The translations under genes were made by a program, and so were the position numbers. From the IMG/VR virus record IMGVR_UViG_2711768046_000005: a stretch of DNA of 35,930 bases, one strand, 5' to 3'. The notes beneath the pieces are model-generated. The model made no database searches and was not told the DNA's origin. It was given only the letters and a program-made list of their open reading frames with translations. Origin of the DNA: a virus (lineage: Duplodnaviria > Heunggongvirae > Uroviricota > Caudoviricetes). Shown here one piece after another: positions 7,047-32,029 of this stretch (positions are counted from its first letter, which is position 1; every line of letters begins with the position of its first letter).

Positions 7047-8237
7047 TTAATTGCTGTTAACCGAGGTGACCAGATTTGCCAGGTATTTATCGGTAATACG
7101 CTGGCGCAGGGTCAGGTTTTCAAGAGGAGGCACCGGTGTATAGTCGTAGTCGATATACAGTTTTCCGGCCTTGAGGGTTTCCGCATCGTTGGATTCTTCG
7201 CTGAACCAGCAGGTCGCATCCACGATATAGCCGTTTGTTTTCAGCTCACGGAATTTGGCATTGATGCCGTCAACGATGTCGCGAATCAGCGTTGCGGTGA
7301 TGGGCTTGTCCACCGCCCACATGTGCGCCTCAGCCATCGTGTCGGCCATCACCTGCGCGGTGCGGGTGTAGTTTTCAAAGAGGAACAGCGGGTCATCAGA
7401 GCAGGTACGGTTACCCCAGAAGCGGAAACCGTCGCGGCGAATCAGCGTTGTGACGCCTGCCTCGTTCAGCAGGTCAGCATCGGTGCCGGACTCCTGCAAA
7501 TCCCAGAATACAGATGCGCTGATGCCGGTAACACCGTTTACCCCGACGTTGGACAGCGTTTTATGCCAGCCCTGCTCCTGGTCGATTTTAGCACGCAGCC
7601 CCAGCGCACGGGCGGTGGCATACGCGGTGGCGGTAGTGCTGCTGACCGTATCCCATGCGAGGAAATCCGGCCAGATGACCATCAGCTCACGCTGGCTGAA
7701 ATTCTGGCGGTAGGCTTTCACCTCGGAAATGGTTTTACAGCCCCATGCGCTGATATACCCGAAAGCGCGCAGCTTCTGACAGACTGATGCCAGTGCAACA
7801 GCCACCTCTTTGGTGTCCAGTCCCGGCACGCCGAGAATACGCGGTTTAACACCGGTTACCGACTCTGCCGCCAGCAGGGCTTTCAGTCCGGTATACTGAC
7901 CGTTTTCGTCAGTGGTGCCGATGATATTGGAAACGGTCTGCGCGAGTTTCGTTTCTTCGTCGTCGCCGGTGCCGTCTTCAACACGCACGACAACGGTGAC
8001 CGGTTTTGACTGGTCAGCGATGGCCTGCAACGATGCCGCCAGCGTGCCTTTTTTACCGGCCTTTGCAATTGCGCTCTGCACATTGGTAATCAGCACCGGT
8101 TTATTGAGGGGGAAGGTTTCCGCATCCGCATCGCTGGCCGTGCAGACCATGCCGACAATGGCAGTGGATACAGTGGAAATGACGCGGGTGCCGTCGTTAA
8201 TCTCCAGCACCTGCACGCCGTGATGATAGTCACTCAT
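7047..8237 (-). CDS. FI: Tail sheath protein FI (396 aa)
   Basis: P2 FI length and synteny. Confidence 0.9.
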   Translation of the reverse strand: MSDYHHGVQVLEINDGTRVISTVSTAIVGMVCTASDADAETFPLNKPVLITNVQSAIAKAGKKGTLAASLQAIADQSKPVTVVVRVEDGTGDDEETKLAQTVSNIIGTTDENGQYTGLKALLAAESVTGVKPRILGVPGLDTKEVAVALASVCQKLRAFGYISAWGCKTISEVKAYRQNFSQRELMVIWPDFLAWDTVSSTTATAYATARALGLRAKIDQEQGWHKTLSNVGVNGVTGISASVFWDLQESGTDADLLNEAGVTTLIRRDGFRFWGNRTCSDDPLFLFENYTRTAQVMADTMAEAHMWAVDKPITATLIRDIVDGINAKFRELKTNGYIVDATCWFSEESNDAETLKAGKLYIDYDYTPVPPLENLTLRQRITDKYLANLVTSVNSN

Positions 8238-8751: not shown

Positions 8752-10086
8752 ATGTTTAGCTTAATCATGGCCGGAGAACCGGACGTTTTTGACCGCTGGC
8801 CGTGTATGGACCCTGAGCTTAAAGAAGGCAAGGAAAGCTTCTCGATGTCCCGCATGCTGGAAGGCACCCCAAGCAATATTTACAGAAAATTAACACCAAT
8901 AAGACCCGATACCTTAAGAGTACTCGCCAAGCTACCGGTGTTGTTCATGACCGAAATTTATACAAAAGATGATGAATATGATACAAACAAGTACATCAGG
9001 ATCAGGCTTGGGGAAATAAGAAATTTACGTAAAGATGGTGGCGATATTTTATTTTCTTTCAAGATTAATCATGATTTTGGAGAAATAACGAATCCCCAAA
9101 CGACATTATATAAAGAAACCCTAGGACTAGGATCTTTCGGGTTAAGTCGTACACATTGGGCAGTAAAAAATAAGGATTTGAATATTGTTCTGGAATTACT
9201 TGGTTTAAACAAAAAAAATAGCCATCTGAAAGGTACAATCAAATTAAAAAAACAAACATACCCAGTAGTCGAGAATATTATAGATTATCTTAATTTCATT
9301 AAGAAAAACTTTCGTGATGGTCTCATTACCTTCTATCGTGGACACTCTAAAAGCTCATATGAGCTTGTCCCCTCTCTTTACAGAAAAAATCAAAACGGGA
9401 CGTACAGGCATCTTGCTTCAGAATCTGATTTAGTACGTGAAATACTCAGCGCAAGACCAAATGAATTTAAGGAGGATAAATTTACGATTGATAAACTTGT
9501 CCGCATGCAGCATTATGGCTTGCCTACAAGACTCTTAGACATTACATCTAACCCACTGATAGCATTATATTTTGCTTGCTGTTCGAACCCCGATGAAAAC
9601 GGACAGGTGATTGCGTTTTCAACAAACAGAAAGAAAATTAAATATTTCGACTCAGACACAGTGAGCTGTATAGCAAACTTATCACTTTTATCTTACGAAG
9701 AGTTGGAAAAATTGTCTTCCATTGATGCCAGAAAAGGTAGTATGGAGTTACCTGAACTCACTGATAAACTTGCAGACCTTATACAGAATGAAAAATCATA
9801 TTTCAGAAACAGAATAATCCCTGATGACTTAAAGAAAGTTGTTTTCCTTAAGGCAAAAATAAATAATGAACGCATACAATCTCAGGCAGGAGCTTTTCTT
9901 CTGTTCGGACTTGATCCCATTTTACCGGAAACAGATGCTGAGTTTCCTCTTAACAGAGTGGAGATAGCGAACAAAAATAAAATTCTGGAAGAGCTGGCAC
10001 AGCTTAATATATCCGAAAGCACTGTATATCCCAGCATGGAGAAAACGGCAGCAGAAATTACAAAAAAGTTTTTATCGGTATCATAA
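8752..10086 (+). CDS. FRG-domain protein with an uncharacterised N-terminal domain (444 aa), cargo at the P2 Z/fun position
   Basis: SD AGGAG (8741-8745) lies 6 nt before the ATG. Motifs FYRGH...LVPSLYR (aa 194-211), MQHYGLPTRLLDITSNPLIALYFAC (aa 252-276) and NNERIQSQAGAFLLFG (aa 371-386) fit my recollection of the FRG family (PF08867). The gene is AT-rich and on the strand opposite the flanking late genes. Confidence 0.65.
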   Translation: MFSLIMAGEPDVFDRWPCMDPELKEGKESFSMSRMLEGTPSNIYRKLTPIRPDTLRVLAKLPVLFMTEIYTKDDEYDTNKYIRIRLGEIRNLRKDGGDILFSFKINHDFGEITNPQTTLYKETLGLGSFGLSRTHWAVKNKDLNIVLELLGLNKKNSHLKGTIKLKKQTYPVVENIIDYLNFIKKNFRDGLITFYRGHSKSSYELVPSLYRKNQNGTYRHLASESDLVREILSARPNEFKEDKFTIDKLVRMQHYGLPTRLLDITSNPLIALYFACCSNPDENGQVIAFSTNRKKIKYFDSDTVSCIANLSLLSYEELEKLSSIDARKGSMELPELTDKLADLIQNEKSYFRNRIIPDDLKKVVFLKAKINNERIQSQAGAFLLFGLDPILPETDAEFPLNRVEIANKNKILEELAQLNISESTVYPSMEKTAAEITKKFLSVS

Positions 10087-10316: not shown

Positions 10317-10844
10317 TTATTGCGGCATTTCCGGCCATTCAGGATTTGCAGGATCCACACGGCTGACCAGAACGCTGTAGCGTTCCCATGACTCCAGTCG
10401 TGCGCGCTCCTCATCCGTCGCCATATTCAGCCTGACGGCGCGTTCCAGCGGCTGGATAACTGATTCAGCTTCGGAAAGTAACGCGGCCTTTTGTGATTCG
10501 GCCTGTTGTTGCTGTTCGTCTGCCGTATAAATCCGCTTAATCACGGCACCATCCTTAAACATCCATTTACCTGAGTCATCAGCACGTCGGTTGGAGGTAA
10601 TATCAGGAACCTCGACAACGCTGAAACCTTCAGGGTTAAGCGTTGAAGCATCTCTGGTGATGCCGACAATTATATTATTCTCGTCGTAAACAATCTTTAT
10701 CGTGTCTTCCTGAAAATTACTTACTTCCTCATACCAGTTTTTTCCGTCCTCAGAGTAAAGCCAGATAACTCCGTGTTTCTTTGTTAACTCATACTGTTCC
10801 AGTGTTTTAGCGTTACCCGCTTTTATGTTCTTTAAGTGCATCAT
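10317..10844 (-). CDS. G: Tail fibre assembly chaperone G (175 aa)
   Basis: P2 gpG length. The conserved C-terminus ...[38 protein letters not shown] is recognised. Confidence 0.9.
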
Positions 10845-10845
10845 A

Positions 10846-13020
10846 TTAAACGCTCGCTACATTATACCAGGTGCCATTTATATACTTTTGGACGGCTCTG
10901 TAATAAACACCCGCTATATTATCGGCAGAGTTGGAACCTGTATCCTGAACATTAATACCAGACAATACATGACCTGATGGGCACTGGAAATTCCATGTTT
11001 GCCAGTTGTTCACTCCATAATATTGCTGTGAACCAAGTCGAACATCTTTCACATATCTGGAATCAAAATTGCCATAGTTGCCGGGAATAACTTGCGAACC
11101 ACAAAGCCAGTTACCGTTATTATCCATGTATGCCTGACCATCGGTGCCATTGGCTGTCCTTGAGTTATTAATCATGTAGATGCCAAATTGCTTATTTCCC
11201 AGACCGCCAATCATAAATTTGCGGTCGGCATGGTCCTGACGGAGCAAAGCCTGAGCACCATCAGTGGATACCGCATTACGTCCAAAAATAACATTCTGGT
11301 CACGCATATGAATCCACATGCCTGTGCTGCTGTTAATTGCAAGGCGGTTTGCGTACACCCATGCGTTAGTTGTTATATCTCCTGTAACATCCAGAGCGTG
11401 CCCCATAGTTATGCGACCAGTTCTGAGATTCAACGAAAAGGGGCGTAGTGGCCCGATATCACCATTTTCCCCCTCATTCTCTCGTGTGGGGATAATATGC
11501 AGGCATTCTTCAGAACGGCGAAAAATAGCACCAAAGGATGAATTAAAGATTCTCAGTGCATTGACTGTCGATATTTTTACTTCACTGCTGAAAAGGGCTT
11601 TAACAAGGACAGACAAAGCATCCCATTTAAGATTCATCAGGTCTTTTGTTGTGGTGCCCTGACGGCTTCTCCATTTGAAATATTCATTGCCGTTGTCGCC
11701 TGTTTCAAACCACATGTATGAATCAGTGTCACCATCGGCATCATTTTTAAATCCAATCTTCGCCCAGTCAGTATTTCGAATCCAGGCAAGGATTGAGTCG
11801 TTTTCAAAAGTAAGTCCACCGGACAAGGTATCGCCATTTTTTTGCACGGCGTTCCCGGCTCGGTTTACCGTTTCCTGTAAACCGAGATATTCGATAACGG
11901 CGGCAACGGTCGATTTAGCCAGAATATCCCGCCCGACTTTTGTCAGGGTCGCCAGGCTGGCAACATCATTCCCCGTAAAATACGGAAACCTGTCTGCCGC
12001 AGTAGCAAGCCCCGCCAGCGCCGTCAAAGTGGCATCTTTCGGTTGCTTACCCGCAAGCGCATTAGTCATGGTGGTAGCAAAATTCGGGTCATTGCCCAGC
12101 GCCGCCGCCAGCTCGTTCAGCGTATTCAGTGCGTCAGGCGACGAGTCTACAAGGGCGGCAATCGCGGCCATAACGAAAGCCGTGTTTGCGATCTGAGTAT
12201 TATTCGTTCCCTGTCGCGCAGTTGGCGTCGTTGGCGTTCCGGTCAGTGCAGGGCTGTTTAATGGCGCTTTCTTGTTCGTTTCATCCATTACCGTCTTAAC
12301 GGCTTTTGGTGTTGCGGCGAGCGTTTCAGACATGCTGTTGGTCGCACTACTTAGCTGGACAAGACCTTTTCGCGCTGTGGTAGCGTCCTGTGCGGTATAT
12401 TTCCCGTTAGCAAGGTCATATGCGGCCTTAACCGCTTTCGGCGTTGCGGCCAGTGTTTCAGACGTGCTGTTGGTCGCATTGCTTAACTGAGTAAAACCTT
12501 TTGCGGTCAGCGAGGCGTCCGGGTGACGTCGTGACTGTTCATGCTCTGCAATTTTGCCATCAACGTAATCCTGCGTCGCCATCACCGTTGTGGTGTCAAT
12601 GGTCAGCTCCACTGAGGCCACACTGCTGACGATGATGACCATGCGGCAGGTCTGCGAACGCCCTGAGCCTTCGGCAAGGGTAGGTTTATAACTTTCGGCC
12701 ATGTTCGCCACGGCAATTAACGTTCCCGCATCATCGTACAGGCCAAGCTCTCGCATCCAGAAACCGCCCACCTCCGGCGGAATAACCAGCTCTGCGATAA
12801 TATAATTACTGTTTCGTTTGTCCTGGCTGATTTTGTTCAGCGCATGTCGCCAGACTTCGTGGATAAGCCCGGTCTGTCCGGCATCCGGGACAGGCAATTT
12901 ACCACCGCCATCCCCGACGGCCATCGTGGTAATGTTGACCTTCCGCCCTCCCGGTGCGGTTGCCGCTGCCAGCTTTGCTGCACCGGCAGTGGTGATAACG
13001 GTTTTGAATTTTGTGCTCAT
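10846..13020 (-). CDS. H: Tail fibre protein H (724 aa)
   Basis: The N-terminus [25 protein letters not shown]... is P2 gpH-like. It has internal tail-fibre repeats, and the C-terminal part is AT-richer. Confidence 0.9.
12295..12502 (-). repeat. Two 76-bp imperfect direct repeats (12295-12370 and 12427-12502), period 132 bp, inside H
   Basis: They encode the duplicated motif L(S/V)..[16 protein letters not shown] (phage tail-fibre repeat). The two DNA copies align without gaps. Confidence 0.85.
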
Positions 13021-22847: not shown

Positions 22848-24620
22848 ATGACCATCACCACAGACACCACTCTTTTACACGACCCGCGTCGTCAGGCGGC
22901 GCTGCTGTACTGGCAGGGGTTTTCCGTGCCGCAGATTGCCGCCATGTTGCAGATGAAACGCCCGACGGTGCAGAGCTGGAAACAGCGCGACGGCTGGGAC
23001 AGCGTTGCCCCCATCAGCCGTGTCGAAATGAGTCTGGAAGCGCGACTGACCCAGCTCATCATCAAACCGCAGAAAACCGGTGGTGACTTCAAGGAAATTG
23101 ACCTGCTCGGACGCCAGATTGAACGACTGGCACGGGTAAACCGCTACAGTCAGACCGGCAACGAGGCAGACCTTAATCCGAACGTCGCTAACCGCAACAA
23201 AGGCGGGCGTCGCAAACCGAAAAAGAATTTTTTCAGTGACGAGGCCATCGAAAAGCTGGAGCAGATTTTCTTTGAGCAGTCTTTCGACTATCAGTTGCAC
23301 TGGTATCGCGCCGGGCTTGAGCACCGCATCCGCGATATCCTGAAATCCCGCCAGATTGGCGCGACGTTTTATTTTTCCCGCGAGGCGCTGCTGCGCGCCC
23401 TGAAAACCGGCCATAACCAGATTTTTCTGTCGGCCAGTAAAACGCAGGCGTATGTGTTCCGCGAATACATCATTGCCTTTGCCCGGCTGGTTGACGTTGA
23501 CCTGACCGGTGACCCGATTGTCCTGGGCAATAACAGCGCAAAACTGATTTTTCTCGGCACCAACTCCAACACCGCACAGAGCCATAACGGCGACCTGTAC
23601 GTCGATGAGATTTTCTGGATCCCGAATTTTCAGGTACTGCGTAAGGTGGCATCAGGTATGGCCTCACAGAGTCACCTGCGCTCGACCTATTTCTCCACCC
23701 CGTCCACGCTGGCGCACGACGCCTACCCGTTCTGGTCGGGTGAACTGTTCAACCGGGGACGCGCCAGCGCCGCCGAACGCGTGGAAATCGACATCAGTCA
23801 TAACGCCCTTGCCGGAGGTCTTCTCTGTGCGGACGGCCAGTGGCGGCAGATTGTCACCATTGAGGACGCCCTGAAAGGTGGCTGCACGCTGTTCGACATT
23901 GAGCAGCTCAAACGTGAAAACAGCGCCGACGATTTTAAAAACCTGTTCATGTGTGAATTTGTTGACGATAAGGCGTCGGTGTTCCCGTTCGAGGAGCTGC
24001 AACGCTGCATGGTCGACACGCTGGAAGAATGGGAAGACTATGCGCCGTTTGCCGCCAATCCGTTCGGCTCCCGCCCGGTATGGATTGGTTACGACCCGTC
24101 ACACCGTGGCGACAGCGCCGGATGCGTGGTGCTGGCACCGCCGGTGGTGGCCGGTGGCAAATTCAGAATACTTGAGCGTCACCAGTGGAAAGGCATGGAC
24201 TTTGCCACCCAGGCTGAATCCATCCGCAAACTCACCGAAAAATACAACGTCGAATACATCGGTATTGATGCCACCGGCCTCGGTGTCGGCGTGTTCCAGC
24301 TCGTGCGCTCGTTCTATCCCGCCGCGCGCGACATCCGCTACACGCCGGAAATGAAAACCGCAATGGTGCTCAAGGCAAAAGACGTCATCCGCCGTGGCTG
24401 TCTGGAATATGACGTCAGCGCCACCGACATCACCAGCTCGTTTATGGCTATCCGCAAGACCATGACCAGCAGCGGACGCAGCGCCACCTATGAGGCCAGC
24501 CGCAGCGAGGAAGCCAGCCACGCCGACCTCGCCTGGGCGACCATGCACGCCCTGTTAAATGAGCCACTCACCGCCGGTATCAGCACCCCGCTGACATCCA
24601 CCATTCTGGAGTTTTACTGA
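22848..24620 (+). CDS. P: Terminase large (ATPase) subunit P (590 aa)
   Basis: The ATG at 22848 (MTITTDTTLLHDPRRQAALLYWQGFSVPQIA...) gives the P2 gpP length. A GAGG SD lies upstream. The TTG-extended ORF was rejected. Confidence 0.9.
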   Translation: MTITTDTTLLHDPRRQAALLYWQGFSVPQIAAMLQMKRPTVQSWKQRDGWDSVAPISRVEMSLEARLTQLIIKPQKTGGDFKEIDLLGRQIERLARVNRYSQTGNEADLNPNVANRNKGGRRKPKKNFFSDEAIEKLEQIFFEQSFDYQLHWYRAGLEHRIRDILKSRQIGATFYFSREALLRALKTGHNQIFLSASKTQAYVFREYIIAFARLVDVDLTGDPIVLGNNSAKLIFLGTNSNTAQSHNGDLYVDEIFWIPNFQVLRKVASGMASQSHLRSTYFSTPSTLAHDAYPFWSGELFNRGRASAAERVEIDISHNALAGGLLCADGQWRQIVTIEDALKGGCTLFDIEQLKRENSADDFKNLFMCEFVDDKASVFPFEELQRCMVDTLEEWEDYAPFAANPFGSRPVWIGYDPSHRGDSAGCVVLAPPVVAGGKFRILERHQWKGMDFATQAESIRKLTEKYNVEYIGIDATGLGVGVFQLVRSFYPAARDIRYTPEMKTAMVLKAKDVIRRGCLEYDVSATDITSSFMAIRKTMTSSGRSATYEASRSEEASHADLAWATMHALLNEPLTAGISTPLTSTILEFY

Positions 24621-25654
24621 TGAGCAAGAAAAAAGGGAAAACACCGCAACCTGCGGCAAAAAAAATGACCGCCAGCGCCCCGAAAATGGAGGCATTCACC
24701 TTTGGTGAGCCGGTGCCGGTACTCGACCGCCGTGACATTCTGGATTACGTCGAGTGCATCAGTAACGGCAGATGGTATGAGCCGCCGGTCAGCTTTACCG
24801 GTCTGGCGAAAAGCCTGCGTGCTGCCGTGCATCACAGCTCGCCGATTTACGTCAAACGCAATATTCTGGCCTCGACATTTATCCCGCATCCGTGGCTTTC
24901 CCAGCAGGATTTCAGCCGCTTTGTGCTGGATTTTCTGGTGTTCGGTAATGCGTTTCTGGAAAAGCGTTACAGCACCACCGGTAAGGTCATCAGACTGGAA
25001 ACCTCACCGGCAAAATATACCCGCCGTGGCGTGGAGGAGGATGTTTACTGGTGGGTGCCGTCCTTCAACGAGCCGACAGCCTTCACGCCCGGCTCCGTGT
25101 TTCACCTGCTGGAGCCGGATATTAATCAGGAGCTGTACGGCCTGCCGGAATATCTCAGCGCCCTTAACTCTGCCTGGCTGAATGAGTCGGCCACGCTGTT
25201 CCGCCGCAAGTATTACGAAAATGGCGCACATGCCGGATACATCATGTACGTCACCGATGCCGTGCAGGATCGCAACGATATCGAAATGCTTCGCGAAAAC
25301 ATGGTTAAGTCGAAAGGCCGCAATAACTTTAAAAATCTGTTTCTCTATGCCCCGCAGGGGAAAGCCGACGGCATTAAAATTATCCCCCTCAGTGAAGTGG
25401 CGACGAAGGACGATTTTTTTAATATCAAAAAAGCCAGCGCCGCAGACCTGCTGGACGCGCACCGCATCCCCTTTCAGTTGATGGGCGGCAAGCCGGAGAA
25501 CGTCGGGTCGCTGGGTGATATTGAGAAAGTGGCAAAGGTCTTTGTCCGCAATGAGCTTATCCCGCTACAGGACAGGATCCGCGAGATAAACGGCTGGCTC
25601 GGTCAGGAGGTCATCCGCTTTAAAAACTACTCACTGGACACTGACAACGGCTGA
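24620..25654 (+). CDS. Q: Portal protein Q (344 aa)
   Basis: P2 gpQ length. TGATG overlaps the P stop. Confidence 0.9.
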   Translation: MSKKKGKTPQPAAKKMTASAPKMEAFTFGEPVPVLDRRDILDYVECISNGRWYEPPVSFTGLAKSLRAAVHHSSPIYVKRNILASTFIPHPWLSQQDFSRFVLDFLVFGNAFLEKRYSTTGKVIRLETSPAKYTRRGVEEDVYWWVPSFNEPTAFTPGSVFHLLEPDINQELYGLPEYLSALNSAWLNESATLFRRKYYENGAHAGYIMYVTDAVQDRNDIEMLRENMVKSKGRNNFKNLFLYAPQGKADGIKIIPLSEVATKDDFFNIKKASAADLLDAHRIPFQLMGGKPENVGSLGDIEKVAKVFVRNELIPLQDRIREINGWLGQEVIRFKNYSLDTDNG

Positions 25655-25822: not shown

Positions 25823-25841
25823 GTGCTTTCCCCACCTCGCC
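25823..25841. other. cos cohesive-end sequence (19 nt)
   Basis: The sequence is gtgctttccccacctcgcc. It is the reverse complement of remembered P2 cos GGCGAGGCGGGGAAAGCAC with one substitution. The flanking sequence toward Q also matches the remembered P2 left end. Confidence 0.8.
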
Positions 25842-25884
25842 CGCCCGCTTCATGGGTCGGTTTTAATGCAGTTGTATTTAATGG

Positions 25885-25915
25885 AAAAAGCCCTCCAGGA
25901 CTGGAGGGCTTTTCT
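25885..25915. terminator. Bidirectional rho-independent terminator between cos and the kinase operon
   Basis: A 9-bp stem agccctcca (25889-25897) / tggagggct (25902-25910) with loop ggac is flanked by aaaaa and tttct. It lies 60 nt downstream of the operon's last stop on the - strand. Confidence 0.85.
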
Positions 25916-25969
25916 ATTAGAGTTCGTAAAATGCTCATGCAAATTCACGCGTTATGCTGCAAAAAACAA

Positions 25970-27037
25970 TCATTTCTTAGCTTTCACAACCGGATGCGCG
26001 CGATCATGTCCACCGCCACGATGCTTAGAAAATATAACCTTTTCATTAGTAAAAGGTTTTTGGCCATAGACACTATCATAGTGGAAAAAGACGTTCGGAA
26101 GATGAGGCACACGGATGAATCCATACTTCACTCTAGTATCACCGATGACCCCAAAAACCCTTGTACTTACTGGGTAGCATAGTTCACCACAACGCATCAC
26201 TAATTCATCTGCTGTTGGGCGTTCAGAAGGTTCCAATTTTAAACAATCTTCTATAAGTTTAATTATTTCATTTGCCAATGGCGCATACTGTCTATTTGAA
26301 AATATAAAGTCAGGGTAAGGAACATGCGTGCCAGAAAGTATTTTTGGTATAGCCATATAACCAATACCAAAAGGGTATTTTCCAGTAAGAATCCTGAACA
26401 TCATCGCACCCAATGCCCAAATATCTGTAGGTTTCGAAACCTTACCTTGACTCTGTATGATTTCCGGTGCCATATATGGCAAAGCCCCGATAGCCGTTTG
26501 CGAAGAACTAATTGAATCTTGACCATTTCTTGCAGCCTCATCAATTTCATCTCCGGCCATCTTTGAAATGCCGAAATCCGTAATTTTTATCTCTGTAGCA
26601 TTGATACCACCGCCTACCATTATATTTGAAGGTTTGAGGTCCCGGTGTATGACGTCAACATGATGCGAAGCAGACAGAGCTTTAGCTAAATTATGAAATA
26701 TTTTAGCAGTTAAATATGGATCAACACTTGAATAAGTGTCTAAAATAGCCTTATCCAAGTCAACTCCATCAATAAATTCCTCCGTTAAAAACTCTCTACC
26801 CTCATCATCAATGAAGTAATCTAAGGTTTTAGCCACATTAGGATGATTAACCCTTGATGCTAATATTGCACTTCTATGAAACCTTTTTTCAGCAGATTTA
26901 TTTTTGGGAGTTTTGAGAGCCACATGCCTCGAGAGAATATTATCCATTGCCAAATAAACTTTTTGCATACCGCCTTCACCAATCTCCCTCAATATTGTAT
27001 ATCTGCTAACTTGAATTCCTGGAGTCAGATTTATCAT
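25970..27037 (-). CDS. Hanks-type Ser/Thr protein kinase with C-terminal cold-shock-domain-like module (355 aa)
   Basis: Kinase motifs are IGEGGMQKVY, VALK (K42), HRDLKPSN (D132), DFG (D154), LPYMAPE, DIWALG and ERP. C-terminal aa 291-352 read FGVIGDTRVKYGFIRVPHLPNVFFHYDSV...EKVIFSKH. This resembles CSD RNP1 (K-G-F-G-F-I) and RNP2 (V-F-V-H-F). SD GGAGGTG is present, and the ATGA overlaps the upstream gene. Confidence 0.85.
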   Translation of the reverse strand: MINLTPGIQVSRYTILREIGEGGMQKVYLAMDNILSRHVALKTPKNKSAEKRFHRSAILASRVNHPNVAKTLDYFIDDEGREFLTEEFIDGVDLDKAILDTYSSVDPYLTAKIFHNLAKALSASHHVDVIHRDLKPSNIMVGGGINATEIKITDFGISKMAGDEIDEAARNGQDSISSSQTAIGALPYMAPEIIQSQGKVSKPTDIWALGAMMFRILTGKYPFGIGYMAIPKILSGTHVPYPDFIFSNRQYAPLANEIIKLIEDCLKLEPSERPTADELVMRCGELCYPVSTRVFGVIGDTRVKYGFIRVPHLPNVFFHYDSVYGQKPFTNEKVIFSKHRGGGHDRAHPVVKAKK

Positions 27038-28098
27038 AACACCACCTCCGGATGGGAAAGGTCAAATGTAATGAAGACCCGCTCTTTTCTTGGCCGAGAA
27101 GTCTCTCCCAGAATAATAACACATGAATCAGGCAAAATATTATATTGCTTTGCAGCTATATTATTCACATACACCTCACCACTTAAACTCGATATATAAA
27201 ACTCTGAACCAGAATATTTCACCTCAATAGTCCCGACCCCTGAATTATTAAAAGCCGCAGATTTATTTGTTGAAGAAATGATGACGGGTGGAGTGTTATC
27301 AGAGATTAACAATGCTCTATGAGAGTTGTAGAGAACGAATTTTTTTAGAGTCTGACACACATCAGCCATATCAGGTCTCTCACAAGGATTCGTATCTAAA
27401 CATTGGAAAAGCAATTCTTTTACCTGAGTTGGTAACTGTATATTAGAATTATCAAAAGGATTAGACAATAATTTTTTGGGTAAAACTCTCATTTCCGGTG
27501 GTAGTGGGGTCTTAGCCAAAAACATGGCCGTTACAGCAAAAGCATATGTATCTATGGATTTTGTAAACGCTACTTGATGTAAAAATAATTCAGGTGCAGC
27601 ATATGTTGGGGTTCCTTTAAAACCTATTGTATTAGCTTCATCAACATTTCTAGATAGTCCGAAGTCATAAATCTTCACTACTCCCTCAGAATCAATTTTC
27701 ATGTTCCCAGGCTTGATATCCCTATGAATAATATCATGAGAATGTATCTCAGAAATACCCGAAGATATTTGCCACAAAATTTTAATCAAATCTTCAGAAT
27801 TTAATATGCGATCCTCTACTTCCAATAATGAAGGTCCGTCAACATACTCTTCGACTATAGCAATTCCTTTACCTTGATAATTAATAACATCATAAAGCTC
27901 TACTACATGTTTTGATCTTAATTTCATCAATGCTGATAACTCATCCATCATTCGAGGAGAATCATCAGGATTACTTATGGACTTTATAGCGACAAATCTT
28001 TCGAGGTGAGTATCCAAGCATTTGATCACGCAACCAAATCCTCCCGAAGCCTCTTCTTCAGTCCTCTTATATCTTGCAGGGAGAGTAAAATTAGTCAT
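27034..28098 (-). CDS. Hanks-type Ser/Thr protein kinase with FHA-like C-terminal beta domain (354 aa)
   Basis: Kinase motifs are SGGFGCV, VAIK (K39), HRDIKPGN (D126), DFG (D145), GTPTYAAPE and CERP. The C-terminal roughly 90 aa (...IEVKYSGSEFYISSLSGEVYVNNIAAKQYNILPDSCVIILGE...) have an FHA-like strand pattern. SD AAGGAG is present, and there is an 8-nt overlap (ATGACTAA) with the phosphatase gene. Confidence 0.85.
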   Translation of the reverse strand: MTNFTLPARYKRTEEEASGGFGCVIKCLDTHLERFVAIKSISNPDDSPRMMDELSALMKLRSKHVVELYDVINYQGKGIAIVEEYVDGPSLLEVEDRILNSEDLIKILWQISSGISEIHSHDIIHRDIKPGNMKIDSEGVVKIYDFGLSRNVDEANTIGFKGTPTYAAPELFLHQVAFTKSIDTYAFAVTAMFLAKTPLPPEMRVLPKKLLSNPFDNSNIQLPTQVKELLFQCLDTNPCERPDMADVCQTLKKFVLYNSHRALLISDNTPPVIISSTNKSAAFNNSGVGTIEVKYSGSEFYISSLSGEVYVNNIAAKQYNILPDSCVIILGETSRPRKERVFITFDLSHPEVVL

Positions 28099-29257
28099 CT
28101 TTATCTCCTTTAGTGGAGTTTTTCTCAGAGAATGAAATATCTAACTGTGAAATATTATCTAACTTATCATTATTGTTAGCTTCGATAACATTCCTTCCCT
28201 CATCACTCTTTATATTACTATTTTTTTTCTTTGTACGTGATTTCCTTTTCGATACATTTTTTTTGTTAGAAATTTCATTACTGCATTCTAACTCAGTAAC
28301 TTTTCTATCAATAACATTTTCAACCGTAGCTGAGTTAGGTATATCTAACGGCGCAGGTTGCACGCTAATTACTTTCATCTCACCAAAAGGATCCCATAAA
28401 TTAATTACATCCCCAGATGATACATCCAAAGCACTTAGGATGTTCGAAATCTCAACTACCGCAATCGACGCATTATCAAATCCACCAAACCAACTAGCTA
28501 GATCTATAACTCTTTTAGCGAACACTCCAGTATTATTGGAGTGAGCATATAATTTTCTCAAATTATTACTGTCAATGGTATGAGCACCATCTGAAGTTAA
28601 TGCAACCACCCCAGGTACGAGCCGAATATCGTGAAAATGTATCTCAAGAACACCATCAAGACCTATAAACTGTACTAACTCGCCACCTAACCTAGAATCA
28701 ATAACACCTGAGTCACTACCAAGATGCTCATTATATTTCTTTGCCAATACAGCTAATGTATCATCCTCACTAATTTGTTTTATGTGTTCAGCATTAATGG
28801 AATATATGCGACTATCCCCGACATTTATTGCTGTAATGTTATCGGAGTCATCTACAGCTAAGGCAGATAACGTAGCCCCACCGTTCCCATTATATACTTT
28901 CAAAACCGATTCATTTGCTTTTAAAACGGCGATTTCAAGACATTGTCTAATTGGCAAGCCTGAGTGTTTAATTATCTCGGTAAAAAAAGATGATACGGTC
29001 AATGAAGCAGCATTCGCTCCCCCTTCCATCCCCCCCATACCATCTGCTAAAGCGATGACAATCATGTCCTTATTCTTACTAAAAGGACGAAATTTTAATA
29101 CAGCTACCCGGTCTTGGTTCTCTTTCCTAACTAAACCTATGTCTGTAGCAATAGCTGCAGGTAGCATAGATACTCTTCGTACAGATGAAGAGATATTTTT
29201 TCTATGCAGCCAAGCGTGTATCTGTTCATGAAGGATCTCGTAAGAGTCTCGACTCAC
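28091..29257 (-). CDS. PP2C (PPM)-family Ser/Thr phosphatase with Lys/Asn-rich C-terminal tail (388 aa)
   Basis: A GTG start is preceded by a strong SD GAGGAGG. PPM motifs are RKENQD (D49), ALADGMGG (D72), GGATLSAL, VGDSRIY, LTSDG (D223) and DNASIAVV (D261). The tail at aa 325-388 is low complexity. Confidence 0.85.
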   Translation of the reverse strand: MSRDSYEILHEQIHAWLHRKNISSSVRRVSMLPAAIATDIGLVRKENQDRVAVLKFRPFSKNKDMIVIALADGMGGMEGGANAASLTVSSFFTEIIKHSGLPIRQCLEIAVLKANESVLKVYNGNGGATLSALAVDDSDNITAINVGDSRIYSINAEHIKQISEDDTLAVLAKKYNEHLGSDSGVIDSRLGGELVQFIGLDGVLEIHFHDIRLVPGVVALTSDGAHTIDSNNLRKLYAHSNNTGVFAKRVIDLASWFGGFDNASIAVVEISNILSALDVSSGDVINLWDPFGEMKVISVQPAPLDIPNSATVENVIDRKVTELECSNEISNKKNVSKRKSRTKKKNSNIKSDEGRNVIEANNNDKLDNISQLDISFSEKNSTKGDKDD

Positions 29258-29287
29258 AGCGCCTCCTCAAGCAAGCATTTCTCCGAA

Positions 29288-29315
29288 GCTATAGATTACA
29301 AAACACTAACGGCAA
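29288..29315 (-). promoter_or_regulatory. Putative sigma70 promoter of the phosphatase-kinase operon (TTGCCG-N16-TATAGC)
   Basis: On the - strand the -35 TTGCCG lies at 29315-29310 and the -10 TATAGC at 29293-29288, about 30 nt upstream of the GTG start. This rests on sequence pattern only. Confidence 0.3.
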
Positions 29316-29478
29316 TTCCTAGCATTACCCACTCAATTCCATTAGAAAACTGACGTAGTACAGTTAGTTGAATATTATTGTGATGACGAATGCCAATCCT
29401 CTGATCACGCTGATTACAATATCACAACTCCCCGCTCTCCGATTCACAGTATTCAGTGATACAGAATATCACCTCGTA

Positions 29479-31764
29479 CTATATACATCGTTGATTTATT
29501 GGAAGCCCCGGCCACTCATCAACAACCGGATATGTAAATTTTTTCTCGCCATATGCCACCCTCGCACCTCGTGCTAGTACATCCAGCTCCCACCGTTCCG
29601 GCGTGATGCCATGCTGTGCGAGGTCAAACCGGATACGCGATATCTGGTCGCGCTGCGATTTAGTCAGCCTTGCCGATGGCGCAATTTCATTAGGTTTTAA
29701 CGGGCCTCCGTTTCTCTGCTGACGATTTGGTGTTCTCAGGCCGTGTTTTAATGCGCCCCTGAGCGCCCTCACTACATCCGGGTCATTCCATTCGATAACA
29801 CCTTCATCAACCAGATTAAGTACTGCTGCGGCGTGCTCAGAAGGTGTGGGAGCCGGTAACGAAGTATCACCACCAGTGAGCTTTCCACAGTTATTGACAG
29901 GACTCCGAGGCGCGACGATGCCGCTTTTTAAAGTCAAAGGCTCAACGACCGGAACTTTCGGCACAATGCGCCAGTCCGTCGTTCTGGTGATATGAATATG
30001 ACGCGCGCCGAGATGCGGCGCGTAAATGCCGACCACTCTCTCGACTTCTTCCTCGTACTCGTTAACTTCATCCGACGGGCTACGGGCGACTCTGACAGTC
30101 TGACAATCGCGCGGGACATTTGCCCCACCCTGCGCGCTGATATACAACGCAAAATCACCACTGTCTGCGGCGGCGCGTGCAGCCTCGACGCGCTCGTCAA
30201 ACTCATCAGCAATGCTGACGCCGCGCGGCAATTTGCGTAGTTCACGGTAAGCCCCCATTGTCGGCAGGCCAACCGTTTTAAATTGCGGGATGCGCCACGT
30301 TGACGCCCATGCGGTAACAGCCGCTGCAGTGTCTTTCAGCGGCCTGCCGGTGTCGTTATCGAGCTGACCATCCAGTGCATAGCCGTCGATGTTTTTTGAA
30401 ATGTATTTCGCGATATATCCCGCAGCACCGCCCCGGTTAAGGTGTTTTGCCTGAAAACGGTTTCGCGCGGCTCCTCTTTCGTCGCCATCCTCTTTGAGCG
30501 CATAGCGACGCATGATTTCGATAATCTGGTTACGCTGGCGTGAATTACAAAAAAGCATCATATGCCAGTGCGGCGTTCCGTCGTGGTGTGGCTCGACGAC
30601 ACGCAAACCGTAGACCTGTAAATCATTATCCTTGAATGCCGTGCGCATCAGGCTCCAGATACGGCAGAGATAACGCTGCGCATCCTTTGGATTAAATGCC
30701 TCATCGTTCCAGCCGTGATTAAGCTGCACGGTTTTACTTTCGCCTTTTCCTACCTGACGTGTCGGGTGATACTTTGACGGCGCGGTCAGCGTGATAAACA
30801 TCCCCACATCACCCTCTGCAGCGGCGTAACGCTCAATACCGGCAATGGTGTTCATCAGCTCCATCCGGCGAATTTCAGGATTAGAAATACTGCCCATCAC
30901 CTTACTGATAAGGTCGATGCGCTCGCCGGTTTCCCTGTTTTCAAGGTCACACGATTTAAGAAATTCCAGATTTGCCTGGCGGCGCGCACGCACATCACGA
31001 ATGGCGTGTTTACTGGCATAAGGAGAACGGTCTTTATTGACCTCCCCGACAGCTATCAGTAACGCTTCATGCCAGCGCATACGCTGGCCTTTAAGCTGAT
31101 GAGTCCACCACTCATCGTTAAACAGACGGGCAATGGCAGAATATGCCTGCCTCGTGGTCATCTGTCCTTTACGGTATTTTTTCCAGTAGAGCGGGGAAAT
31201 ATTGAAAGCACGTGCAGCGCCAGCAACATGACCATACAGGTGAGCCTGCGCCTCATCCGTAAACAGCGATTCTTTTTCACCATGCGCATCAACCCATGCA
31301 TCGCAGAGTTCCTCATACATCATGAAAAGCTGCGATGAGATACGGGCGGCAAACTTTTTCAGCTCCTTGTCATTCATTCCCGGCAGGCGCGCATAGTGGT
31401 CACGCTCTGCCAGAAACAGCAACGACGCGTCGGTGTTCATTTCATGGCGCTGATTCACACGCTCAATGCGCGGCCATAAACGACGCTGAAAAGTAGATGT
31501 GAGGAAATAAAACCCGTGCACCGGGCTTTTATTGCGCCGGATGTAGTCATAGCGTGAAGTAAACAGCGAGCGCAAAAAGTAAGGCAGGCGGTTAATCGTG
31601 GATAAAACACCTTGCACCTGACGCATCTCGTCACGTGTAAGAGGTCTTTCGCGCCCGACAGCCTCGCGTGGCGCGTTCCATGCATAAGCACCGGTAAATG
31701 CCTTACCGGTGCCTGCGGTAAATGCTGACGGAGGGACAAAACACCCGGAGGCTTTAACGGCCAT
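29479..31764 (-). CDS. A: Replication initiation (rolling-circle nickase) protein A (761 aa)
   Basis: MAVKASGCFVPPSAF...GAYAWNAPREAVGRERPLTRDEMRQ... is recognised as P2 gpA. The start was set at Met15 of the 775-aa ORF to give the remembered 761 aa. The longer start at 31806 is not excluded. Confidence 0.85.
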   Translation of the reverse strand: MAVKASGCFVPPSAFTAGTGKAFTGAYAWNAPREAVGRERPLTRDEMRQVQGVLSTINRLPYFLRSLFTSRYDYIRRNKSPVHGFYFLTSTFQRRLWPRIERVNQRHEMNTDASLLFLAERDHYARLPGMNDKELKKFAARISSQLFMMYEELCDAWVDAHGEKESLFTDEAQAHLYGHVAGAARAFNISPLYWKKYRKGQMTTRQAYSAIARLFNDEWWTHQLKGQRMRWHEALLIAVGEVNKDRSPYASKHAIRDVRARRQANLEFLKSCDLENRETGERIDLISKVMGSISNPEIRRMELMNTIAGIERYAAAEGDVGMFITLTAPSKYHPTRQVGKGESKTVQLNHGWNDEAFNPKDAQRYLCRIWSLMRTAFKDNDLQVYGLRVVEPHHDGTPHWHMMLFCNSRQRNQIIEIMRRYALKEDGDERGAARNRFQAKHLNRGGAAGYIAKYISKNIDGYALDGQLDNDTGRPLKDTAAAVTAWASTWRIPQFKTVGLPTMGAYRELRKLPRGVSIADEFDERVEAARAAADSGDFALYISAQGGANVPRDCQTVRVARSPSDEVNEYEEEVERVVGIYAPHLGARHIHITRTTDWRIVPKVPVVEPLTLKSGIVAPRSPVNNCGKLTGGDTSLPAPTPSEHAAAVLNLVDEGVIEWNDPDVVRALRGALKHGLRTPNRQQRNGGPLKPNEIAPSARLTKSQRDQISRIRFDLAQHGITPERWELDVLARGARVAYGEKKFTYPVVDEWPGLPINQRCI

Positions 31765-32029
31765 ATGAGCCAAAAGCCTCTGAACAACGCTTGCTGAGTT
31801 GCTCAACCTGCGCGTTTAAATCAGCAAAAGATTTTGCGCTTCCGGTCAGAATATCGTGATGCATCAGGCCGGAAACGAGCTGGCCTAATTTCGGGTAATA
31901 ACCAACCACCGCCAGCCATTCCTGACCGGCGTTTTTACCGCTTTCCGCTCTCTTTTTCTCGTGGAGAATAAACTGAAAGCTGTCACTGGTAACGACATAA
32001 CGTTCGCCAATTTCAATACGAATACTCAT
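31754..32029 (-). CDS. P2 orf83-position early protein (91 aa)
   Basis: Its position immediately upstream of A and its coupling to the neighbouring genes support the call. Function unknown. Confidence 0.7.
   Translation of the reverse strand: MSIRIEIGERYVVTSDSFQFILHEKKRAESGKNAGQEWLAVVGYYPKLGQLVSGLMHHDILTGSAKSFADLNAQVEQLSKRCSEAFGSYGR

Follow-up and report, generated by a model that had tools for sequence, protein, structure and literature searches.

Within the window (the whole stretch of 35,930 nucleotides of viral DNA that was analysed) three overlapping and intact open reading frames occupy positions 25970 to 29257 of the minus strand and encode a PP2C phosphatase and two Ser/Thr kinases. 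The pfpC-like gene (28091 to 29257; 1167 nt) has a GTG start and specifies a PP2C Ser/Thr phosphatase of 388 aa. It is followed on the same strand by a pfkB-like gene for the first Ser/Thr kinase (kinase 1; 27034 to 28098; 1065 nt, 354 aa) and a pfkA-like gene for the second (kinase 2; 25970 to 27037; 1068 nt, 355 aa). The RefSeq annotation of E. coli S40 contains the same three CDSs with identical ends. The pfpC- and pfkB-like genes overlap by 8 nt (ATGACTAA) and the pfkB- and pfkA-like genes by 4 nt (ATGA), while the ribosome-binding sites GAGGAGG, AAGGAG and GGAGGTG lie 4 to 6 nt 5' of the three starts. All of this confirms what an earlier note on this DNA had described for strand, overlaps and Shine-Dalgarno motifs. 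That note had also proposed that the insert ends in its own terminator, and a hairpin followed by a T run is indeed present at 25885 to 25910 on the minus strand (AGCCCTCCA-GTCC-TGGAGGGCT, then TTTT). This intrinsic-terminator-like structure has a 9-bp GC-rich stem and a 4-nt loop, lies 60 nt 3' of the pfkA-like gene within the variable cargo and was caught in part by the scan (25902-25889). On the upstream side, 220 nt (29258 to 29478, minus strand) separate the stop of gene A from the start of the pfpC-like gene and presumably hold the promoter and regulatory region; no consensus sigma-70 site was called there on the minus strand.

Genomic context

The operon lies in a variable cargo segment of about 3.63 kb (25875 to 29506) in the P2 cos/Q-A hotspot. 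The segment is flanked by the portal gene (24620-25654) with a cos-like site, and by replication gene A (29479-31806). By reading the sequence we located the P2-type cos-like element GGCGAGGTGGGGAAAGCAC at 25823 to 25841 on the minus strand, which we take to resemble P2 cos and which serves as landmark for the left boundary of the hotspot. GC content is 0.34-0.41 within the cargo against 0.53-0.59 in the flanks. Other P2-like phages are approximately 95% identical to the window up to 25874 and once more from 29507 onward; for PhiR44_1 and phage 899 the similarity breaks off and resumes at exactly these positions. Both the drop in GC content and this comparison bear out the earlier description of an AT-rich insert in the P2 slot. 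The corresponding slot of other P2-like phages is filled with genes unrelated to these, among them ParaMORC3+Dcm, cdt toxins, Fic/VbhT and an exoribonuclease. The P2-like prophage carrying the module is integrated beside yegQ/yegR.

Gene products

The catalytic motifs, which had been called intact before, could all be located in the phosphatase and in both kinases. Numbered by first residue, those of the phosphatase are RKENQD44, DGMGG72, GDSR147, SDG222 and FDN260; D72, which had been named as a mutation target, is the first residue of DGMGG72. The protein matches the Pfam family PP2C_2 (PF13672) with 26.7 bits (cut-off 24) and the NCBIfam Stp1-type PP2C profile at 1.5e-29, covering positions 2-231 of 232. 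Its PP2C domain spans approximately aa 38-268 and is followed by a basic, low-complexity tail of 120 aa rich in Lys, Asn, Ser and Asp.

Kinase 1 contains VAIK36-39, HRDIKPGN125, DFG145 and APE168, and kinase 2 contains VALK39-42, HRDLKPSN131, DFG154 and APE190; K39 and K42, respectively, are the residues singled out in the earlier note. The Pfam kinase domain (Pkinase, PF00069) is matched at 1.7e-42 by kinase 1 and at 4.7e-45 by kinase 2. Differences between the two become clear when comparing them with the kinases of the filamentous prophage Pf6. Kinase 1 shares 43% identity with PfkB of Pf6 over its full length (E 2e-85), together with the C-terminal ...FITFDLSHPExxL end, and kinase 2 shares 52% with PfkA, again over the full length including the cold-shock domain (CSD) and its GFI motif (E 1e-119). 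The cross-pairs reach just 26-28%, in alignments restricted to the kinase domain.

The C-terminal cold-shock/OB domain of kinase 2 covers approximately aa 286-355, with the GFI motif at 306-308. When searched as a fragment it matches the CSD profile with E 0.0024 and 18.1 bits, below the 27-bit cut-off, and the S1-like profile with E 0.0046; the PfkA_MP reference itself likewise stays under the CSD cut-off (19.5 bits against 27). Among full-length homologues of kinase 2, 39 out of 62 match PF00313 (best 5.2e-08). The AF2 model (overall pLDDT 90) has five strands at 293-353 with pLDDT of at least 94 there, and the domain is 42% identical to the CSD of PfkA_MP. The GFI motif, the profile matches of the domain and its homologues and the five-stranded model together uphold the earlier view that the second kinase carries a CSD-like module.

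For kinase 1 the situation is more mixed. Its C-terminal domain (approximately aa 256-354) is all-beta and corresponds to the domain named FHA in PfkB. The AF2 model (pLDDT 91) contains eight beta strands at 262-347, and this block reaches pLDDT 91-98 except for the last residues. Identity with the 'FHA' construct of PfkB_MP is 39% over about 100 aa, and both end in FITFDLSHPE. Nevertheless, none of 64 members of the kinase 1 family matches Pfam FHA (PF00498) at E<=1, the reference PfkB_MP itself has no Pfam FHA match at E<=10, and a profile search of PDB sequences found no FHA. An hhalign comparison with three PDB FHA cores gave 12.6% probability (P 0.0023) and aligned only the core EIRxDG...NGTxVNN, upstream of which the canonical GR and SxxH motifs are not evident by inspection. 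With Foldseek, matches of the whole kinase 1 model were swamped by kinases. Sequence comparison thus fails to confirm the earlier label 'FHA-like' (PF00498 undetected); what it shows is homology to the all-beta domain named FHA in PfkB. Given the sequence identities to the Pf6 kinases, it is very unlikely that the two C-terminal domains are non-homologous to those of PfkA and PfkB.

Relationship to KKP

A system of this kind, KKP (kinase-kinase-phosphatase; PfpC-PfkB-PfkA), was reported by Guo et al. (bioRxiv 2022; Nat Commun 2024, PMC11341870). It is defined as a PP2C phosphatase with one kinase-FHA and one kinase-CSD protein, and its named carriers include P2 and P4 prophages (PMC11341870). 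The authors searched for adjacent PP2C, kinase and kinase genes on the same strand, each of 900-1300 bp (PMC11341870); the window genes agree with this rule in order, strand, overlaps and size (1167, 1065 and 1068 nt). The authors consider that a C-terminal CSD with a GFI/A motif on the PfkA-type kinase may be a hallmark of KKP (PMC11341870). The catalogue comprises more than 1200 clusters, over 90% of which are located on temperate prophages or other mobile elements (PMC11341870). E. coli S40, which carries the exact proteins of the window, is listed in Supplementary Data 2 of that study (PMC11341870). Its chromosome has a single detected KKP locus, at which the 3.6 kb of the window is found at 100.0% identity (rounded); the IMG prophage coordinates given in the catalogue (1691653-1724332) do not coincide with RefSeq 1857173-1860460. 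A Providencia P2-like prophage and a Pseudoalteromonas integrase island also carry the triad, in identical order and with the same overlaps.

Among the closest known relatives is KKP_EC039 from a P2-type prophage of E. coli 15EC039, which has the same three-gene order and a GTG-start phosphatase likewise beginning with SRDSYE. In a 71%-identical E. coli variant, the ends of the phosphatase gene are an exact match to the gene-specific core of each of the two published pfp_EC039 primers. This EC039-type variant occupies the same slot of a P2-like prophage, flanked by portal and gene A, and its genes overlap by about 11 nt and 4 nt by annotated coordinates (against 8 nt and 4 nt for the window genes). 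Besides the 71% identity at the DNA level, its PfpC, PfkB and PfkA are 66%, 68% and 81% identical to those of the window, respectively, and the PfpC tail 48%. Among 5426 complete E. coli genomes we counted the window allele 14 times and the EC039 type 4 times. The founding member, KKP_MP, resides in Pf6 of P. aeruginosa MPAO1. Both its kinases are full-length orthologues of those in the window (PfkA 52%, PfkB 43%), with the CSD's GFI motif and the SHPE C-terminus of PfkB in common. Its carrier is an inovirus and that of the window a P2-like myovirus.

Given the gene anatomy, the intact motifs, the orthology and the genomic slot shared with a tested module, the module is most probably (at a probability of roughly 0.85) a member of the published KKP family, carried as pfpC-pfkB-pfkA cargo by a P2-like E. 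coli prophage. The presence of other defence cargo in the same slot of sister phages is counted in favour. The earlier note named no catalogued system with exactly a PP2C, STK-FHA-like and STK-CSD architecture and allowed that its novelty would fall if the same triad already had a name; KKP is exactly that triad, so this claim fails. PADLOC 2.0 is without a KKP model and returned only generic kinase-domain matches, none of them for the phosphatase. As it does not recognise KKP, annotation pipelines can be expected to go on flagging such loci as unknown.

Proposed mechanism

Published experiments describe KKP as a toxin-antitoxin system of three components in which both kinases together exert the toxicity and the phosphatase serves as antitoxin, as in KKP_MP (PMC11341870). 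Joint kinase toxicity, catalytic neutralisation by the phosphatase and phage defence were shown for KKP_MP, KKP_SW and KKP_EC039 (PMC11341870). In experiments the last of these acts against T4 and T-odd phages, and its trigger, Gp59, targets PfpC (PMC11341870). The CSD and FHA-like domains are needed for joint toxicity, and co-purification of His-FHA with CSD-Flag is listed in the supplement (PMC11341870). The proposal of an anti-phage phosphosignalling system, whose phosphatase would keep toxic kinases in check after the fashion of a toxin-antitoxin pair, matches these experiments on orthologous modules, including KKP_EC039 (PMC11341870).

What we infer for the window allele as to toxicity, neutralisation, defence spectrum and trigger would run as follows. 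The two Hanks-type kinases would act jointly via their C-terminal FHA-like and cold-shock domains and, if unchecked, would phosphorylate themselves and many essential host proteins (replication, translation, division), leading to growth arrest. PfpC would continuously reverse this phosphorylation as a type VII-like antitoxin. Upon lytic infection a phage replication protein, which for KKP_EC039 is the T4 helicase loader Gp59, would inactivate PfpC. Kinase activity would then go up, growth would stop and phage yield would collapse, an abortive-infection-like outcome that would protect both the lysogen population and the prophage. Such a toxin-antitoxin and abortive-infection reading of the window module, though predicted, is supported by orthology.

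The pfpC-like product is accordingly the predicted phage sensor as well as the predicted antitoxin. Gp59 of T4 binds and inhibits PfpC, with an in-vitro inhibition that the authors call 'modest' (PMC11341870), and RepG4 of Pf4 triggers KKP by causing degradation of PfpC (PMC12328805). Nucleic-acid sensing by the CSD, as envisaged in the earlier note, finds no support in the published work, where the triggers act on the phosphatase (Gp59, PMC11341870; RepG4, PMC12328805). Of the three proteins PfpC has also diverged furthest (66% identity to the EC039 type overall, 48% for the tail), so that trigger and phage range may differ between the two alleles. We tentatively consider, as a rather doubtful possibility, that the window allele represents a KKP variant with a distinct function. 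It could recognise another phage trigger and protect against other phages, and it might couple P2 lysogeny or interference with a P4 satellite to kinase activity.

Alternative explanations

It is improbable, yet worth weighing, that the main role of the module in the prophage is control of lysogeny and induction rather than defence, possibly through a target of the H-NS family or a co-resident P4-like satellite. The P. aeruginosa KKP has such a documented second role: it controls Pf4/Pf6 virion production via phosphorylation of MvaU, a host nucleoid-silencing protein (PMC11341870). The triggering by RepG4 of Pf4 (PMC12328805) points the same way, and KKP-mediated prophage-prophage interactions were proposed by the authors for other hosts, for example P2/P4 pairs (PMC11341870). 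However, this role is shown for filamentous Pf phages only, whereas all four of the non-filamentous modules that were assayed, the P2-type module of E. coli among them, proved active in defence (PMC11341870). The two roles are not mutually exclusive, and the content of the window has no bearing on the lysogeny role. Much less probable still is a function of the kinases in virulence or host interaction, as reported for prpZ-prkY-prkX (t4521-t4519) of Salmonella Typhi. That cluster has the same arrangement of a PP2C phosphatase and two tandem eukaryotic-type kinases, is framed in the literature as a virulence locus, and its PrkX/T4519 is said to aid survival inside macrophages (PMC11984733). The closest Salmonella homologues among the matches seen share 67% identity with kinase 1 and 80% with kinase 2 of the window. 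But the KKP module of S. Typhi CT18, presumably the prpZ cluster, was one of the four modules that Guo et al. assayed, and gave phage defence in E. coli (PMC11341870). No secretion signal or effector feature was found among those tested, and the spread of the module over environmental Gammaproteobacteria, marine Pseudoalteromonas among them, speaks against an ancestral function directed at host cells.

Other kinase families were compared as well. The window kinases match the PADLOC models mad6 (1e-52 to 1e-54) and PD-T4-6 (down to 4.5e-50) and the NCBIfam models PknB/Stk1 and MAD6, but every match is confined to the kinase domain. An ordinary Stk1/Stp1-type pair, or another kinase defence family such as PD-T4-6, MADS MAD6 or BREX PglW, is hence extremely improbable. 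For Stk1/Stp1 the kinases score 113 and 168 bits against an NCBIfam cut-off of 450 and the phosphatase 103 against 230, and PASTA repeats and transmembrane segments are absent from the window kinases. For MAD6 the scores are 112-128 bits against 460 (NCBIfam), and with the three genes filling the 3.6-kb cargo, a methylase or other MADS/BREX partners are absent. The PD-T4-6 alignments reach the end of the kinase domain or slightly beyond it (residue 283 at most) and do not extend into the C-terminal domains, and the locus itself comprises three genes in one operon, for a phosphatase and two different kinases. PD-T4-6 was reportedly described by Vassallo et al. in 2022 as a single-gene Ser/Thr kinase defence system. 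Like the staphylococcal Stk2 it is a Ser/Thr kinase of the Hanks type that, when active in infected cells, halts the production of phage; unlike the window module, both are single-gene and without phosphatase antitoxin, second kinase, CSD or FHA-like modules. TerY-P consists of a TerY (vWA) protein, a kinase and a phosphatase; the cargo segment has no vWA/TerY ORF among its three genes.

Conclusions

Summarizing, membership of the KKP family remains the preferred reading. The KKP architecture, its toxin-antitoxin logic, its anti-phage activity and its location in the P2 hotspot are already published, and a strain with these exact proteins is already in the published catalogue, so that the locus carries little weight as a discovery. 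The two E. coli alleles, 66-81% identical and located in the same slot, form a natural pair for mapping the determinants of trigger specificity in the phosphatase.

Genomic slot and gene organization

The window holds a P2-like prophage that adjoins a host U32 peptidase gene; in Escherichia coli S40, a strain carrying exactly the same proteins, the integrase end abuts yegR/yegS. The triad under study is flanked by the portal gene (24620-25654), with a cos-like site on that side (25823-25841), and by replication gene A (29479-31806). Because other P2-like phages are approximately 95% identical as far as 25874 and then again from 29507, the variable cargo can be delimited to 25875-29506. This segment contains the triad, a 220-nt region 5' of it and a terminator, and nothing else. 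In other P2-like phages the same slot is occupied by unrelated cargo: ParaMORC3+Dcm, cdt toxins, Fic/VbhT, DUF4209 or an exoribonuclease. The placement in the old/tin hotspot, as proposed in an earlier note based on the sequence alone, is thereby borne out.

All three genes are on the - strand and encode a pfpC-like PP2C phosphatase (28091-29257, 388 aa, GTG start), a pfkB-like kinase (kinase 1; 27034-28098, 354 aa) and a pfkA-like kinase (kinase 2; 25970-27037, 355 aa). Read on the reverse strand, the gene junctions overlap by 8 nt (ATGACTAA) and 4 nt (ATGA), and Shine-Dalgarno-like sequences (GAGGAGG, AAGGAG and GGAGGTG) are located 4-6 nt 5' of the three starts. A hairpin with a 9-bp GC-rich stem and a T run (25885-25910), 60 nt beyond the last stop, is the predicted terminator. 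The GC content is 0.34-0.41 in the cargo segment against 0.53-0.59 in the flanks. Catalytic motifs are present in the phosphatase (RKENQD44, DGMGG72, GDSR147, SDG222 and FDN260) and in both kinases (VAIK36-39 in kinase 1, VALK39-42 in kinase 2, and HRDxKPxN, DFG and APE in each). The Pkinase match in Pfam is very strong for both kinases; the phosphatase scores slightly over the cut-off for PP2C_2 and matches the NCBIfam Stp1-type PP2C profile from end to end. The RefSeq annotation of E. coli S40 contains the identical three coding sequences, RG69_RS09520-30. The genes, overlaps, ribosome-binding signals, motifs and AT-rich insert described earlier are confirmed.

A promoter scan of the - strand upstream of pfpC found no sigma-70 consensus. 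We claim no promoter, as the number of promoter-like sites (11) is not above that in shuffled sequences (12.3). The sequence closest to a promoter consensus in this region (28532-28561, - strand; TTGAGA-18-AATAAT, 10/12) falls within pfpC and upstream of the kinase genes; the site frequency just given applies to it too. An internal promoter would be relevant here, since the kinases can reportedly reach higher expression than pfpC (Guo et al., PMC11341870).

A second cargo-type open reading frame (8752-10086, + strand, 444 aa) runs antiparallel to the tail genes at the Z/fun position, the second cargo hotspot of P2, and is flanked by the sheath gene (7047-8237) on one side and by the tail-fibre genes (10317-13020) on the other. 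Given its Pfam FRG domain (2.8e-22) and its match to the PADLOC phage-defence candidate PDC-S15 (6.7e-99), the prophage seems to carry a second defence-type cargo gene.

Identity with the KKP system

The triad is the published kinase-kinase-phosphatase (KKP) system in its published location. The name and description are due to Guo et al. (bioRxiv, September 2022; Nat Commun 2024, PMC11341870): pfpC, encoding a PP2C protein, precedes two kinase genes, of which pfkB encodes a protein ending in an FHA domain and pfkA one ending in a cold-shock domain that bears a GFI/A motif. Their catalogue comprises more than 1200 clusters, and a figure legend names Phage_portal and Phage_GPA among the neighbour genes (PMC11341870). 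The claim that the combination was novel therefore fails, as the same triad already carries a name. KKP, or any phosphatase-kinase triad, is absent from the main text of both Rousset et al. 2022 and the 2026 P2/P4 hotspot survey.

Comparison with the PfkA and PfkB sequences of the Pf6 prophage, taken from the supplement of PMC11341870, resolves the two kinases. Kinase 2 aligns with PfkA along its entire length (52% identity, E 1e-119), with YGFI and the terminal ...GGG..RAHPV of the cold-shock domain included. Kinase 1 and PfkB share 43% identity (E 2e-85), which extends to the C-terminal FITFDLSHPE. The cross-pairs reach 26-28% identity, in the kinase domain only. Consequently the gene order pfpC-pfkB-pfkA is conserved. 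E. coli S40 is listed in Supplementary Data 2 of PMC11341870, and the 3.6-kb cargo segment of the window, at 100.0% identity (rounded), is the sole detectable KKP locus of this strain; the catalogue entry, with IMG gene ids 2720209377-79, is probably this locus.

The same literature describes an experimentally tested E. coli allele, KKP_EC039. The primers published for pfp_EC039 have gene-specific cores without a match in the window; these cores match exactly both ends of the phosphatase gene in a second E. coli allele, which ties the latter to KKP_EC039. This EC039 type occupies the same slot, between portal gene and gene A of a P2-like prophage, but differs from the window at the DNA level (71% identity) and in its proteins (66, 68 and 81% identity for PfpC, PfkB and PfkA). 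PfpC is thus the most diverged of the three, which fits a sensor role although it is not evidence for one. PfpC also has a 120-aa C-terminal tail (residues ~269-388, window 28091-28450) rich in Lys, Asn, Ser and Asp, with a basic patch KKNVSKRKSRTKKKN; between the two alleles the tail is 48% identical with 17 gap columns, against 74% for the PP2C domain.

Assignment of the triad to Stk1/Stp1, MADS, PD-T4-6, BREX or TerY-P fails: scores stay below the curated thresholds and the partner genes are missing. PADLOC contains no KKP model. Its profiles mad6, PD-T4-6, MkoA and PglW match the kinases in the kinase domain only; as the partner genes are absent too, none of them was accepted as a family assignment.

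C-terminal domains of the kinases

The earlier note described one kinase as cold-shock-like and the other as FHA-like at the C-terminus, and the former description holds up better. The isolated C-terminal fragment of kinase 2 matches the cold-shock domain with E 0.0024 and an S1-like domain with E 0.0046, the same level as PfkA_MP, the PfkA of the founding module from P. aeruginosa MPAO1. Among full-length homologues, PF00313 is found in 39 of 62 and an S1-like match in 53 of 62, and in the AlphaFold model (pLDDT 90, pTM 0.89) residues 293-353 form a unit of five strands. A cold-shock domain is thus well supported.

The evidence for FHA is weaker than both the note and the paper suggest. In the model of kinase 1 (pLDDT 91), residues 262-347 are confidently predicted to form an all-beta domain of 8 strands, which is clearly homologous (39% identity) to the 'FHA' construct of PfkB. 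However, PF00498 matches none of kinase 1 and its 63 homologues (0/64), and no FHA match at E<=10 is obtained for the reference PfkB_MP or for both isolated C-terminal fragments. The current Pfam HMM thus does not reproduce the published label 'FHA (PF00498)', whether on PfkB_MP or on any of the 64 relatives. Searching the PDB with a profile of the kinase 1 C-terminal domain yields no FHA, only chance-level matches to ribosomal uS19 (E 0.12). A Foldseek search of the PDB with the full model gives at least 2000 matches; the 50 listed are all kinase-domain structures and so uninformative on the C-terminal fold. Against a small FHA profile built from three PDB chains, which a consensus bait had retrieved, hhalign gives a weak alignment (12.6% probability, P 0.0023) confined to the 'EIRxDG...NGTxVNN' core, and by inspection the canonical GR and SxxH phosphothreonine-binding motifs are not evident upstream of this core in the kinase 1/PfkB family. 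On these grounds we refer to it simply as the C-terminal domain of PfkB, which may be an FHA domain in degenerate form.

Function by orthology

In the orthologous modules either kinase alone is non-toxic, but in combination they phosphorylate themselves as well as many essential proteins, among them PolA, TopA, DnaG, InfB, Tsf, FtsZ, MinCE and RpoD, resulting in growth and division arrest (PMC11341870). Toxicity needs both C-terminal domains and the GFI motif, and its neutralization needs the catalytic motifs of PfpC (PMC11341870). T4 escape mutants map to Gp59, which binds PfpC_EC039 and modestly lowers its activity (PMC11341870), and in Pseudomonas the Pf4 replication protein RepG4 leads to PfpC degradation (PMC12328805).

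Based on 66-81% protein identity, identical architecture and the identical slot, the window allele would work likewise: the kinase pair would be toxic together, PfpC would neutralize it, and a phage trigger acting on PfpC would set off growth arrest. We put the probability of this statement as a whole at about 85%, and hold membership of the KKP family, taken alone, with more confidence than that. The earlier idea of a phosphosignalling defence in which the phosphatase restrains the kinases is largely right by this orthology. Sensing of phage nucleic acid by the cold-shock domain finds no support in the data; the orthologue triggers, Gp59 and RepG4, act on PfpC, and by analogy the predicted sensor is the phosphatase.

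Two other main roles are less likely. The triad may control lysogeny or relations between prophages, a function documented in Pf6 that the authors also suggest for further prophages (PMC11341870), and such a role could coexist with defence. Alternatively the genes could be virulence factors, as the prpZ cluster of S. Typhi is framed in the literature (PMC11984733); nonetheless, phage defence was obtained with a module from S. Typhi CT18, the same strain (PMC11341870), and the environmental spread of the family also argues against a virulence role.

Distribution

Of 5426 complete E. coli genomes, 14 contain the window allele (at least 99% identity) and 4 the EC039 type. The exact window proteins occur on hundreds of contigs. 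In E. coli NDM2 the KKP segment (99.9% identical) is present in the chromosome (NZ_CP083886.1) and at positions 39132-42751 of NZ_CP083887.1, a 43,140-bp record filed as a plasmid; this copy may represent an assembly duplicate or the P2-like prophage in excised, circular form. Triads with the same order and overlaps also reside in a Providencia P2-like prophage with a Toprim-type replication gene and in a Pseudoalteromonas integrase island. Only one of 50,697 deposited phage genomes contains a PfkA homologue, namely the unannotated record of Klebsiella phage Kp4865-2 (OK490418.1, 8633-9664; 45% identity, E 2e-87). Overall, KKP is common in prophages and almost absent from sequenced phage isolates.
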